The notes: generated from the sequence alone by a model not told the origin. A stretch of 64,000 nt of DNA from Spirochaetia bacterium (GCA_965243525.1 OZ251568.1:258236-322235); one strand, 5' to 3'. Counted from the stretch's first letter, positions 38,339-46,381 are shown. Made by a program: numbers and translations.

Positions 38339-38522
38339 GTCATTATTGTCAACACGACTGGCAGGCTGCACAATGAGGCGATTTTCCGATTGCACAGAAT
38401 CATGCAATTGCTCCTTCCATTGCTCAATAGGCATTACAATAAAAATAAATTAATTTTAACTTTTAAAGATAATAGAGGTGTTCTTAGGGAATAACTGTGT
38501 ATATACTGTTTTAGGAGTGTGT

Positions 38523-40115
38523 ATGCATGTACAAAATCTACGTATTGGTTTGATTCTTTTGGCACTTTGTTCTGCACTGCTGCTGAGTTGTCCGGAACCA
38601 GGGAGCAATCCCATGGTTCAAAGAAATTGGAACACGCCTTATCACGATGCAATTTTCAAAGCAACGCATAACTCTTATGCTGCATCAATTCCTGACCAGC
38701 TTGATGCTGGTGCGCGCTTGATTGAAATCGATCTCCATGACGATGATCACGCCAGTTATGGGTATCGCGTTGGGCACGATTCGCCCGGACATTTGGTTTT
38801 TTTGGAATCTAGGAATCCTAGCAGCATCAAACTTTCTCCCTGGCTTTCGATGCTTTCTGCATGGTCGCAGAACAATCCAGGACATGCCCCGATCACCTTG
38901 CTCTTTGATATCAAAGATTCTCTCTATGATAGCGATGGATATGATGGGTATGATCTATCTCGCTTCAACCAGGAACTGATCAATGCTCTTGGTGAGAACA
39001 ACATCTATACGGCATTTGAACTGGGAACCTCCTATGCTTGGCCTCTTGTCGGTGAATTGCGCAACAAGTTCATCGCTGTCTTGTCTGGAAACACAGGGAA
39101 TTATTCGGCATACGTTGCAACCCATGGCGAAATGCCCGCAGTGGCGATGAATGATCATGGTCAAATCATCGCTGTCTATAAAGAGAGTTTTAGCTTTGAT
39201 CTTCGGTATTGGACCGGAGAATGGCAAACCGCCAATCCCGACAACAAAATGCCTGAGGGAAGTATTCGCTGGATGCGTAATCGGCGCTATGCCCAGGACT
39301 ACAGTACGAGCAGTCACCCTGCAGTTGCCATCAACAACGCGGGGTGGATCGTTACAGTTCATCAAGGACCAAACCAAGCATTGGAATACCGCTTAGGAAA
39401 GCTCACCGCCGAGCTAGACATCGACTGGAAAACAGACCTCACCTCTGTAGGCTTTGGAAACAATCCGGCTATTCACTTCGACACCCTCGATGGCAATACC
39501 TTGACGGTAGTCTACACCGGAGTTGCTCCAGATACAAACACCTATGCAAAAAGCATCACCCTGGATCCTGCGACACCAGAACTGAGACATGCACCTGCAA
39601 GCCCATCCAATGATTCAAGCGGATTATTGCAGAACAAGAATCACGCGGTTTCGAGTATAGGCACTGTTCGAGTGAGCTCCGATTCCAATATGGAAAATCT
39701 CTTGACCTATACCACCGATGACATGGCCGGTACCGGCACCAGTGAGATAACCGGACGCATTCGCTTTTTTCAACTTGCCTTCACCGAGATTGATCCAGTC
39801 AGGATCATTGAAGGCGACAGAGCATATGAAACAGTGTACGCTGAAACAACGGGCAGATTTTATGCTGATGGGGTAGATTTCTTTTTTGATGCAGACGAGT
39901 TGATTTTTTCATCATACTTTGACTCAACCGTCGAACACAGAACCAGAGGGGGAAATCCTTTTCTGATAACTCGATTTTATGCGTTTGGATCAAGCAACGC
40001 AAAGGGAGTCAGTGATACCAGTGCACTGCCCAATTTCCCTGCCCCTATTCTCATCTCACTAAGCTATGAGAAATGGTATACTTCACTGTTTCAACGAATC
40101 CAATACTTTGAATAA
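38523..40115 (+). CDS. PLC-like phosphodiesterase lipoprotein, paralog 1 (PI-PLC X-box-like N-domain plus repeat-containing C-domain)
   Basis: The start is set at MHVQNLRIG (AGGAG RBS). Lipobox LLSC. ATHNSY...RLIEIDLHDD...YRVGH resembles the PLC X-box catalytic H-N...E-x-D...H arrangement. Confidence 0.55.
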   Translation: MHVQNLRIGLILLALCSALLLSCPEPGSNPMVQRNWNTPYHDAIFKATHNSYAASIPDQLDAGARLIEIDLHDDDHASYGYRVGHDSPGHLVFLESRNPSSIKLSPWLSMLSAWSQNNPGHAPITLLFDIKDSLYDSDGYDGYDLSRFNQELINALGENNIYTAFELGTSYAWPLVGELRNKFIAVLSGNTGNYSAYVATHGEMPAVAMNDHGQIIAVYKESFSFDLRYWTGEWQTANPDNKMPEGSIRWMRNRRYAQDYSTSSHPAVAINNAGWIVTVHQGPNQALEYRLGKLTAELDIDWKTDLTSVGFGNNPAIHFDTLDGNTLTVVYTGVAPDTNTYAKSITLDPATPELRHAPASPSNDSSGLLQNKNHAVSSIGTVRVSSDSNMENLLTYTTDDMAGTGTSEITGRIRFFQLAFTEIDPVRIIEGDRAYETVYAETTGRFYADGVDFFFDADELIFSSYFDSTVEHRTRGGNPFLITRFYAFGSSNAKGVSDTSALPNFPAPILISLSYEKWYTSLFQRIQYFE

Positions 40116-40384
40116 TCAGTAGAATCATAGCAAACATCCGCCCCCTCAACAGACGATATTGTCCACTATCCCCTTGTGACGGGCCTTAGACAGAGCAATG
40201 AACAGTTTAAAACCCCGCGAATAGCTTGCAGAAATAAAAAAGACAAGATATCCTAGCATAATTACTGGGGTACCCTATTTGTTGTTTGATGTAATTAACA
40301 AATTTCTATTTTTGTAGATAAAAGGAGATCCCATAGGAATTACCAGGTATCTATCATGTGATATATATCGTTTTAGGGGGATAT

Positions 40385-44580: not shown

Positions 44581-44762
44581 CGCCTCTGTTGATTCTGGAT
44601 AGCACATCAAGCATCAAACAATTCATACAATACTATTCATGCATAGTCCTCGTACGAAGTTTTTTAGCAAGCCTGAACAGCATCAAAAACCCACGAATAC
44701 TTGCAGAAATAGAACAGGCACGCTATCATATTTACTAAAACTCCCTATTTGTTATTGGATGT

Positions 44763-46331
44763 ATGAATACACAGAATCTACGGATTGGCTTGATTTTCTT
44801 AACTCTTTGTTCTCCACTGCTGCTGAGTTGTCCGGGACTAGGGGTCTATACTGGATTTCGCATAGGTGCTTATCCACCGGTCTCTCCATCAGATCCCTAT
44901 TGGAATACTCCCTATCATGACGCGGTCTTCAAAGCAACGCACAACTCATACACTAGATCAATTCCTGCTCAGCTTGACGCTGGGTTTCGCTTGATTGAAA
45001 TCGATTTCCACGATCAGGCACATACTAATTATGGGTATCGCGTTGGACATTGGTGGCCAGGGCATCAGGTTTCTTACGGCTATGGAAATCCTAACACCAC
45101 CAGGCTCCCTGCCTGGCTTTCGATGCTTTCTTCATGGTCACAGAACAATCCAGGACATGCTCCAATCACTCTGATTTTGGATACCAAGGATCCTATTGCA
45201 GATGCAGATAACGACGGGTACGCCGGACACAATCTATCTCGATTCAATCAAGAGCTACTCGACGCCTTTGGTCTAGACAACATCTATACGGCAGCTGAAC
45301 AAGGGCGCTCTTATCACTGGCCCCCTGTCGGTGATTTGCGCGATAAATTCATCATCGTCATGGCTGAAACTGGAAGGAGTGTAAATCGTCAGGCATATGT
45401 CGGAACCCTTGGAAAGACACCCGCAGTGGCGATGAATGACCATGGCCAGGTCATCGCAGTCTATCAGAAACCTATTTCACGTTGGCTTTGGTATTGGACC
45501 GGAGAATGGCAAACCACCAGCTCTGACAACAAGATGCCTACAGGAAGCATTCTCTGGTTGCGCAATCAGCGTTACGCTTGGGGATTCGATTACGAAAGCC
45601 CCCCTACAATTGCAATCAACAACGAAGGATGGATTGTTGCAACCCATCAGGGAATCAATCAGGTAATAAAATATCAATTGGGAAAGCTCACTCCTGAGCT
45701 AGACATAGACTGGAAGACAGCACCCATCTCGGCTAATTCCGGAAGCAATCCAGCCATTCGCTTCGACAGCCTTGACAGCAATACTCTGACGGCAATCTAC
45801 ACCGGAATCGACTCAGATACAACGATCTATGAACAAGATATTACGTTGCATACAGAGAGATCAACGCTCGAGCTGTCGGCTGCAACAAGCTCATCCAATG
45901 ATCAAAACGAATTATGGAAGAACGTGAACAGCGCAAATTCAAATACAGGCACTGTCAAAGTTAGCTCTGATAGAAAAAATCTCTTGACTTATTCTGCCAA
46001 CGGAAGAACCGACCGCATTCGCCTATTTCAAATCTCTTTCGTCGAAGCTGACCCAGTCAGGATCGGCAGAGACTCCTCATATGCCACGCTACTCACTGAA
46101 ACAACAGGCAGGTTTCATTCTTCAGATAGCCCTGACTCAACTGTTCGCTACAGAACCTCAACAAATGGGGATCCTTTTTTGATAACAAGAAATTTTATGT
46201 TTGGATTAGACGATGCGCATAGAATCAGCGATCCCCGCGCATTACCTAATTTCCCTGCACTTTACAATGCTCATGATTATCGAAGACCATGGTATCACGC
46301 TCTGTTTGGACAATTCAAACATTTCGAATAA
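44763..46331 (+). CDS. PLC-like phosphodiesterase lipoprotein, paralog 4
   Basis: MNTQNLRIGLIFLTLCSPLLLSC. The ATHNSY/IEIDFHDQ/YRVGH blocks. Confidence 0.55.
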   Translation: MNTQNLRIGLIFLTLCSPLLLSCPGLGVYTGFRIGAYPPVSPSDPYWNTPYHDAVFKATHNSYTRSIPAQLDAGFRLIEIDFHDQAHTNYGYRVGHWWPGHQVSYGYGNPNTTRLPAWLSMLSSWSQNNPGHAPITLILDTKDPIADADNDGYAGHNLSRFNQELLDAFGLDNIYTAAEQGRSYHWPPVGDLRDKFIIVMAETGRSVNRQAYVGTLGKTPAVAMNDHGQVIAVYQKPISRWLWYWTGEWQTTSSDNKMPTGSILWLRNQRYAWGFDYESPPTIAINNEGWIVATHQGINQVIKYQLGKLTPELDIDWKTAPISANSGSNPAIRFDSLDSNTLTAIYTGIDSDTTIYEQDITLHTERSTLELSAATSSSNDQNELWKNVNSANSNTGTVKVSSDRKNLLTYSANGRTDRIRLFQISFVEADPVRIGRDSSYATLLTETTGRFHSSDSPDSTVRYRTSTNGDPFLITRNFMFGLDDAHRISDPRALPNFPALYNAHDYRRPWYHALFGQFKHFE

Positions 46332-46381
46332 ACCACCATCATACAGGCGACCACTAAAAAATAGAGCACATTGCACAGTCT

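Follow-up and report, generated by a model that had tools for sequence, protein, structure and literature searches.

A tandem array of four putative PI-PLC-type lipoproteins in a Spirochaetia bacterium, with a predicted split barrel and duplicated remnants of a neighbouring repressor gene

Among secreted bacterial enzymes, phosphatidylinositol-specific phospholipases C (PI-PLCs) are classic agents of virulence and scavenging, and they also serve as tools for releasing proteins anchored by glycosylphosphatidylinositol (GPI). The Ca2+-dependent bacterial enzymes, represented by those of Pseudomonas sp. 62186 (Protein Data Bank, PDB, entries 5fyo, 5fyp and 5fyr) and Streptomyces antibioticus (PLC1; 3h4w and 3h4x), are exported and form contiguous single-domain barrels of ~300 amino acids (aa). 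In eukaryotic PLC-delta1 and PLC-gamma, the X-Y linker sits between barrel strands 4 and 5. Here, we describe a tandem array of four genes, P1 to P4, within a 64,000-nucleotide (nt) stretch of a Spirochaetia bacterium genome (GCA_965243525.1, OZ251568.1:258236-322235), hereafter the window, from whose first letter all positions are counted. In sequence and in fold, the four proteins match the Ca2+-dependent bacterial PI-PLCs best, and these alone significantly; the two groups have in common (predicted) export, the same His-Asn, Glu-x-Asp, His and Lys columns, and a fold that, in a model without the insert, covers the whole chain at a template-modelling (TM) score of ~0.6. The P proteins differ in a barrel predicted to be split by a module of ~200 aa past the fourth beta-alpha unit, in a second barrel half that is unrecognisable by sequence, and in a predicted lipid anchor attached via a tether. 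Taken as a package, P1 to P4 are probably lipid-anchored, exported phosphodiesterases of the Ca2+-dependent PI-PLC type, in which the insert aids substrate or membrane recognition.

The array consists of four collinear open reading frames (ORFs) on the plus strand, arranged head to tail, which were mechanically called at 545, 548, 642 and 522 aa (Table 1). The true starts of P1 and P2 are likely the internal ATG codons, because these align with the starts of P3 and P4 and have AGGAG or GGGGG 7-9 nt ahead of them; the public protein record of P2 is likewise 539 aa long. Pairwise identity among the paralogs is 59-74% at the aa level and 68-84% at the nt level. All four share the motifs ATH[ND]SY, RLIEID[FL]HD and YRVGH, together with the N-terminal pattern M-x-[TV]-x-N-L-R-I-G-L-I-[FL]-L-[TA]-L-C-S-x-[LI]-L-L-[SG]-C, and the ORF translations thereby confirmed a preliminary description of the locus, which had reported four collinear paralogs with a lipoprotein signal and common catalytic motifs.

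Pfam family PF16670 (PI-PLC-C1) matched P1 to P4 with E-values of 7e-11 to 6e-7 over profile positions ~43-227 of 329, at 34.0, 31.6, 42.2 and 29.2 bits, respectively (gathering score 29.9). Searched against the PDB with phmmer, only the N-terminal ~155 residues were aligned, to 5fyo (E 2.6e-10) and 3h4w (E 1.4e-4). A 54-sequence family profile matched the same entries at 1.3e-21 and 5.7e-14 and added a weak collinear second stretch, in which the C-terminal '...ivRlWgFde...' falls on 5fyo residues 229-281. In the HMMER alignments, His60-Asn61, Glu79-x-Asp81 and His96 line up with HN, ExD and H, respectively, in both 5fyo and 3h4w. P1 to P4 retain every one of the catalytic columns listed in Table 1, the sole change being N61D in P3, and the check for active-site His and Asp residues that had been proposed found His60, His96 and Asp81 in all four. 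For SaPLC1 itself, the residue roles are those that we take its structure to assign. Roles were otherwise assigned from the alignments and from the clan-level description in PMC5095149, in which the catalytic and metal-binding signature of the PLC-like phosphodiesterase clan consists of two His plus Glu/Asp/Glu metal ligands (H...E.D...H...E/D), as described for glycerophosphodiester phosphodiesterases (GDPDs).

An AlphaFold2 model of full-length P4 (pLDDT 79.5, predicted TM score, pTM, 0.78) shows four beta-alpha units (residues 57-213), ~24 strands (218-418) and four more beta-alpha units (426-516), and Foldseek matched it to the Ca-dependent PI-PLCs over ~190 columns (E 2e-9). As a test of barrel completion, P4 residues 45-214 were joined to residues 417-522, using an alignment from the full-length homologs. 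The resulting insert-deleted model (pLDDT 80.4, pTM 0.85) superposed on 5fyp, 5fyo and 5fyr over 291-299 columns of ~294 residues (TM 0.59-0.65, E 3e-12), followed by 3h4w and then by eukaryotic PLC zeta, beta, gamma and delta, whereas GDPD and sphingomyelinase D were matched only at E 0.08-0.17. The TIM barrel is thus predicted to be split, with residues ~45-215 forming strands 1-4 and residues ~419-522 forming strands 5-8 on either side of an all-beta insert of ~200 aa, which would make the repeat region an insertion past the fourth beta-alpha unit and not a C-terminal domain. The PLC-like catalytic domain of the preliminary description is accordingly well supported by PF16670 in all four proteins (in P4 just under the cut-off), by PDB sequence and fold matches, and by the His/Asn/Glu/Asp/His set; the AlphaFold comparison with PLC-like TIM barrels that it had suggested recovered the barrel, the insert-deleted model spanning the whole Pseudomonas PI-PLC. 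Its division into an N-terminal domain and a C-terminal repeat domain needs revision: the PLC-like barrel and the repeats are real, but the repeats are modelled as a mid-barrel insert and the C-terminal ~100 aa as strands 5-8.

The eukaryotic PI-PLC X/Y enzymes belong to the same barrel family, and in them, too, the barrel is broken at its midpoint, between strands 4 and 5. The P-protein insert is a beta repeat and not a PH, SH2 or SH3 domain, and C2, EF-hand and PH domains are lacking. Pfam PI-PLC-X (PF00388) reached 11.3-15.5 bits in P1 to P3 against a cut-off of 23.1, with P4 unlisted at E <= 1, and PI-PLC-Y (PF00387) gave zero matches. The likeness to the eukaryotic X-Y linker is topological and does not speak for common descent of the insertion.

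Profile-profile comparison of the insert identified three clear repeats and one degenerate repeat of ~50 aa each (hhalign E-values: r1-r2 1.7e-20, r1-r3 2.2e-11, r2-r3 5.8e-12 and r2-r4 2.6e-4), whose consensus is roughly 'Y-D-x-G-x-x-P-A-V-A-h-N-x-x-G-x-V-V-E-V-H-x-S-...-L-W-Y-x-x-G'. Photorhabdus propeller lectins were retrieved by Foldseek with the middle of the P4 model (E 3.5e-6 to 1e-4, TM 0.2-0.36, root-mean-square deviation >10 Å), and the BFVD fold matches were generic propellers only. These PLL/PHL lectins, the best structural match for the insert, are likewise built of ~50-aa four-strand repeats; they are seven-bladed, whereas the insert has 3-4 repeats, and no sequence similarity links the two. 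Propeller-like blades are a reasonable reading of the modelled repeats, which might close into a four-bladed propeller. The same repeat stands alone in ~300-aa proteins with six copies and in far larger multi-repeat proteins (300-1600 aa over both kinds; P0119, P0129, P0143, P0151, P0071 and P0110), with the motif 'P-x-V-A-x-N-x-x-G-x-V-V-E-V-H-x-S...L-W-Y-x-V-G', and a profile of the stand-alone repeat found zero matches in the PDB. Because the insert repeat has neither a Pfam or NCBIfam model nor a PDB sequence relative, it appears to constitute an undescribed propeller-type repeat family.

Among P1 to P4, the ratio of non-synonymous to synonymous divergence (dN/dS) is 0.29-0.40 overall, 0.20-0.29 in the first barrel half, 0.26-0.36 in the insert, 0.34-0.53 in the second barrel half and about 1 in the linker, and at this coarse regional level no signal of positive selection was detected. 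Because the catalytic columns are kept and dN/dS is below 1, all four paralogs are most likely functional enzymes under purifying selection. The diversification after duplication that had been noted earlier is therefore borne out, as divergence under constraint.

Each protein begins with a lipoprotein signal, in which a basic n-region is followed by a hydrophobic stretch and then by LL[SG]C; the sequence reads MNTQNLR, followed by IGLIFLTLCSPLL and L-S-C (G-C in P3), and its Cys is invariant in the four paralogs, in support of the original assignment. The linker after the signal measures about 20 aa in general and about 135 aa in P3, of which 85 aa belong to the TPEPT stalk that had been reported there. 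The lipobox Cys also occurs in most close homologs, and many members of the family have a signal peptide or lipobox followed by an acidic low-complexity linker, because of which tethered export is probably a trait of the whole family. We infer from these signals that P1 to P4 are lipidated and located outside the cytoplasm.

The growth of the array has left footprints of the adjacent repressor gene, which is convergent with P4. The repressor carries HTH_26 and HTH_3 helix-turn-helix (HTH) domains at aa 22-78 and Peptidase_S24 at aa 200-285, and its translation shows the G-E-S-M and F-K-R-L motifs of a Ser/Lys dyad, which would permit self-cleavage. When the segment 46332-47500 was compared with the whole 64-kb window by blastn, it matched at just two further sites, one behind P2 and one behind P3, and no remnant was found after P1. 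Both derive from the last ~50 repressor codons (46382 to ~46540), and their matches are significant (Table 1), in agreement with the degraded copies at ~75% nt identity that had been reported after the second and third paralogs. Over all 159 nt equivalent to 46382-46540, identity is 67-69% between either remnant and the repressor and 59% between the two remnants, a pattern that two neutral copies diverging from one constrained gene would give. Because their tblastn peptides contain an in-frame stop and frame changes, both are apparently pseudogene fragments. Unit-to-unit blastn alignments run unbroken through the P stop codon and spacer as far as the repressor 3' end; one pairs 40379-42204 with 44757-46537 and the other pairs 42876-44552 with 44899-46512, each at 72%. 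The two remnants end <= ~30 nt apart on the repressor gene. The hairpin directly past the P3 stop codon is homologous to the P4-repressor convergent spacer; its counterparts past P2 and P4 are weak.

At the left end of the unit, homology between P2 and P3 extends over about 290 nt, about 175 nt of them upstream of the start codon, at 81-88% identity. The conserved 5' regions of ~100-170 nt previously proposed for the paralogs thus hold only in part: beyond this pair, P4 retains about 90 nt at 73%, having lost an AT-rich piece of ~95 nt that holds AGGAG, and P1 has only ~27 nt. P4 expression may differ or be weak given this loss. Within the conserved 5' blocks, an Rfam scan found zero regulatory RNAs and a sigma-70 promoter scan performed no better than on shuffled sequence. 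The P1-P2 spacer aligns weakly with the spacers ahead of the P3 and P4 upstream blocks.

With outgroups included, neighbour joining gave the tree (P1,(P4,(P2,P3))), with bootstrap values of 0.97 for (P2,P3), 1.0 for (P2,P3,P4) and 1.0 for all four. Synonymous divergence (dS) is 0.44 between P2 and P3, 0.75-0.78 between either of these and P4, and 0.79-0.93 between P1 and the rest. P2 and P3 form a mosaic at the nt level, with 94-96% identity at P4 residues 241-290, 81-96% (mostly >=85%) at residues 216-414 and 65-78% at both ends, and with a dS of 0.25 in the insert versus 0.61-0.64 in the barrel halves; the high-identity tract looks like gene conversion. According to the model that we propose, an older duplication would have given P1 plus an ancestral copy. 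A segment from ~40 nt past the P1 stop codon to ~160-190 nt inside the convergent repressor would then have undergone tandem duplication, so that a shortened repressor end came to lie after the left copy and the complete gene after the right one. The left copy with its remnant would have been duplicated anew to yield P2 and P3, after which the copies would have diverged under purifying selection, with the conversion-like tract between P2 and P3. This model is supported by its consistency with the gene tree; the duplication of the segment may have been an illegitimate recombination and that of the left copy an unequal homologous crossing-over. Growth by a unit spanning a P gene and the repressor 3' end, as put forward in the preliminary description, is thus sustained by the unbroken unit alignments, the two remnants and the fitting gene tree. 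Head-to-tail copies with their own upstream blocks, variable tethers and a patch of concerted evolution are features shared with tandem surface-lipoprotein arrays grown by unequal crossing-over. Unlike in the usual arrays, the boundary of the unit is marked here by a datable footprint, namely the truncated 3' end of the gene next door. Nothing in the array pointed to phase or antigenic variation.

An exhaustive hidden Markov model search for relatives returned 2951 cluster representatives at E<=1e-3; at E<=1e-30 there were 460. Many of these span the whole architecture. A word-indexed search returned 10 proteins, four of them P1 to P4. Because so many representatives match at the stricter threshold, most of them from actinomycetes and metagenome-assembled genomes (MAGs), the architecture is not unique to this genome. 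A one-genome-per-species scan found 134 loci, mostly from Nonomuraea, Amycolatopsis, Dactylosporangium and other actinomycetes, the rest coming from MAGs labelled Polyangiales, Ignavibacteriales, proteobacteria and others. The gene is single at 80/80 of the other loci that were fetched, and the four-copy array is specific to this genome; the notion of an expanding family holds here and not elsewhere. A fifth member, P0087, is encoded outside the window; its recorded contig has the length (1,792,209 bp) and sources of that of the window's own proteins. It groups as sister to P1 to P4 (bootstrap 0.99). This lipoprotein of 890 aa carries a full GLUG module fused ahead of its PLC-like/repeat domain, and the module is a homolog of the two GLUG lipoproteins beside P1 (36506-38101 among them). 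Because its catalytic residues are replaced (His60 by Arg, Asn61 by Asp, His96 by Tyr and Lys142 by Arg), P0087 is probably inactive. In the manner of a 'Rosetta stone', this fusion also ties the GLUG module to the PLC-like one, whereas the window holds the two in separate, divergent neighbouring genes.

As to how P1 to P4 would work, the first barrel half would bring His60-Asn61, Glu79, Asp81, His96, Asp/Glu140 and Lys142, and the second half Arg476. The His pair, with Ca2+ held by Asn/Glu/Asp, would cleave the phosphodiester of a lipid whose head group is inositol phosphate or something similar, with the cut on the side of the glycerol, and the inserted repeat module would give head-group, glycan or membrane recognition. 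Chemistry, metal dependence and substrate are all read across from the relatives, and the case for an inositol lipid as the substrate is evenly balanced. More speculatively, and in our view unlikely, the insert-bearing proteins could be an undescribed class of exported phospholipases C, in which a propeller-like glycan-binding module in the X/Y junction guides the enzyme towards inositol lipids that carry glycans, for example GPI anchors, the glycosyl inositol phosphoryl ceramides (GIPCs) of plants and fungi, or actinobacterial phosphatidylinositol mannosides and lipoarabinomannan (PIMs/LAM), with the four copies seeing different head groups and P0087 being a binding-only form.

Several points weigh against the assignment as exported, lipid-anchored PI-PLC-type enzymes. 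P4 falls below the PF16670 cut-off, and the sequence match to known PI-PLCs seems limited to the first barrel half. Removal of the insert from five family members did not lengthen the PF16670 match, which still ended near profile positions 214-241; the complete barrel therefore rests on structure prediction, namely on two AlphaFold models, both built from 10 sequences, the second model being of an artificial deletion construct. The propeller assignment of the insert suffers from low TM scores and a high deviation, and Pfam and NCBIfam hold no model that covers it. The insert-bearing family is without a characterised member, and the homolog loci have no conserved neighbour beyond the gene itself and antisense shadow ORFs that could hint at the substrate. 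Finally, the labels 'diderm lipoprotein' and 'surface' are assumptions, and the targeting of host lipids put forward in the preliminary description is likewise conjecture.

An alternative is that the proteins act mainly as surface adhesins, lectins or variable antigens, in which the repeat module does the work, the barrel is a scaffold or pseudo-enzyme, and the array diversifies the antigen. The middle module does resemble sugar-binding propeller lectins, stand-alone versions of the repeat are known from 300-1600-aa proteins, the linkers are variable and evolve neutrally, a conversion-like tract links P2 and P3, and P0087 lacks the two histidines and has a GLUG module of adhesin type fused to it. 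However, every catalytic and metal-binding column is kept in the four array members, the N-terminal barrel half is the most constrained region, and the repeats have no sequence match to any PDB or Pfam lectin, all of which makes this explanation quite improbable. It is somewhat less improbable, though still unlikely, that the proteins are PLC-like phosphodiesterases of another specificity (GDPD, sphingomyelinase D or lysophospholipase D, or enzymes acting on teichoic acids or glycolipids) engaged in scavenging phosphate or nutrients. The sugar and glycerol-3-phosphate-type ABC transporters and the dihydroxyacetone kinase of the window would suit scavenging, GDPD and spider sphingomyelinase D are among the fold matches at TM ~0.49, and one barrel with one His/Glu/Asp/His set serves very different substrates across the clan (PMC5095149). 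Nonetheless, PI-PLCs lead GDPD and sphingomyelinase D by at least 10 orders of magnitude in Foldseek E-value and are the only significant sequence matches in Pfam and the PDB, which argues for the PI-PLC type.

Two further alternatives concern the origin of the locus and not the enzyme. The remnants could have arisen otherwise, either from a full repressor that once stood behind each P copy and was then mostly deleted or from a mobile intergenic element, as the original junction is not directly readable after ~0.3 substitutions per site and the P3 remnant may run ~30 nt beyond the P2 remnant. We regard this as very unlikely, given that both remnants stop within ~30 nt of each other with the same placing relative to the P stop codon and hairpin, that the fragment occurs at no other site in the 64 kb, and that the gene tree needs one junction only, formed once and then copied. 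The array might also be cargo of an adjacent prophage-like element (a 'moron', or cassette for lysogenic conversion) and be under the control of the S24 repressor, which would be compatible with the PI-PLC-type function. It abuts a CI/LexA-type repressor, beyond which lie a small Mor/HTH_7-like protein, a fibre-like GLUG protein of 2641 aa and an ORF resembling a tape-measure gene, and these right-hand genes can tentatively be viewed as a prophage-like or tail-like element. Against this, no relatives of the P family or the repressor were confirmed among 2.9 million IMG/VR viral contigs, the tape-measure-like protein had zero matches among GenBank phages, neither an integrase nor an att repeat was identified, base composition does not shift over the array and its surroundings, GLUG genes occur elsewhere in the window too, and the homologs in other genomes lie in ordinary chromosomal contexts; phage carriage is thus doubtful. 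The link to a tail-module repressor that had been proposed holds as physical adjacency and no further. The tRNA-Pro gene was considered as a prophage attachment site and rejected, as the prophage-like genes lie on its 5' side and a repeat of its 3' end was not seen.

Other features of the window, from a genome of ~45% G+C with saccharolytic gene content, are as follows. Canonical TTGACA promoters face each other at 47363-47414, in the region where the repressor and the genes divergent from it meet. The GLUG-motif family comprises three lipoprotein-sized genes, namely the two of Table 1 and one at 20698-22188 (+), plus the 2641-aa protein (48679-56604, -) with at least three copies of the module; aa identity is 30-40%, and all members finish in a W-x-W...WP-x-LQ motif. 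The 23S rRNA gene is not beside the 5S gene, whose upstream side is held by a GLUG lipoprotein gene, and the rRNA genes seem to be unlinked. On either side of a sugar ABC-transporter cluster stand two dhaK-dhaL (dihydroxyacetone kinase) pairs (365-2381 and 9464-11485) with equal ORF lengths (335 + 220 aa) and ~70% nt identity, the outcome of an old segmental duplication. Adjacent ankyrin-repeat proteins of 437 and 552 aa are encoded beside cysS (25467-26780 and 26737-28395, +); such repeats are unusual in free-living bacteria and often tied to eukaryotic-host interaction. The window also holds a match to a Leptospira-type M23 hydrolase model.

Table 1. Features of the P1-P4 array and its surroundings (nt positions in the window, unless given as aa), and conservation of the catalytic columns.
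Feature	Position	Strand	Remarks
5S rRNA gene	34662-34771	-	isolated; just downstream of tRNA-Pro; Rfam 90 bits
tRNA-Pro(CGG)	34966-35039	-	
Two GLUG-motif lipoprotein genes	35197-36366 and 36506-38101	-	divergent from P1
P1	38523-40115	+	530 aa from ATG 38523; mechanical ORF 38478-40115 from GTG 38478; PF16670 E 2.3e-8; lipoprotein signal and predicted split PI-PLC-like barrel with repeat insert
P2	40385-42004	+	539 aa from ATG 40385; mechanical ORF from GTG 40358; PF16670 E 1.2e-7; protein record P0002
P3	42449-44377	+	642 aa; PF16670 E 7e-11; Thr/Pro/Glu stalk past lipobox; Asn61 replaced by Asp (ATHDSY)
P4	44763-46331	+	522 aa; adjoins intact repressor; catalytic columns kept
P4 signal and lipobox	aa 1-23		
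P4 linker	aa 24-44		
P4 barrel strands 1-4 (predicted)	aa 45-215, nt 44895-45407	+	
P4 repeat insert (predicted)	aa 216-418, nt 45408-46016	+	
P4 barrel strands 5-8 (predicted)	aa 419-522, nt 46017-46328	+	
P3 stalk repeat (TPEPT)	42599-42853	+	15-nt tandem repeat, 16.6 copies
Upstream block of P2	40199-40357	+	left end of duplication unit, with Shine-Dalgarno
Upstream block of P3	42263-42448	+	81-88% to P2 block
Upstream block of P4	44674-44762	+	shortened: ~95 nt including AGGAG gone versus P2 and P3
Remnant after P2	42084-42204	-	blastn 74.0% over 123 nt, E 2.0e-14; tblastn fragment FKRLRISPNLAKD
Remnant after P3	44441-44562	-	blastn (44441-44552) 76.3% over 114 nt, E 4.8e-16; in-frame stop and frame shift; tblastn QIIDPQMNRVIEIYT, LAKKDKEYNRYTPC*ED
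Hairpin directly past P3 stop	44392-44430	+	-22.4 kcal/mol, z -4.0
Intact repressor, HTH and peptidase S24 (CI/LexA-like)	46382-47374	-	330 aa; convergent with P4; PF00717 E 1.1e-6, HTH_26 2.9e-5, phrog_4 transcriptional repressor 1.6e-16
ORF without assigned function	47459-47818	+	119 aa; divergent from repressor
Mor/HTH_7-like protein	47805-48083	+	92 aa; phrog_836 late transcriptional activator, 7.7e-8
His60			kept in 53/54 family members
Asn61			kept in 52/54; Asp in P3
Glu79			kept in 54/54
Asp81			kept in 54/54
His96			kept in 52/54
Asp/Glu140			kept in 49/54
Lys142			kept in 51/54
Arg476			kept in 53/54; second barrel half

What is new here is an architectural variant of a known enzyme family; the tandem expansion is in itself ordinary, if neatly documented, and current understanding is not overturned. 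The array offers a clean worked example of tandem family growth, in which a truncated neighbour end marks the unit boundary and agrees with the tree, and the predicted split barrel is a bacterial counterpart of eukaryotic PLC-gamma, whose X-Y linker carries regulatory domains. The sizeable unannotated PI-PLC branch with a mid-barrel module, which extends over actinomycetes, myxobacteria-like MAGs and this genome, could hold new lipid or glycolipid specificities.

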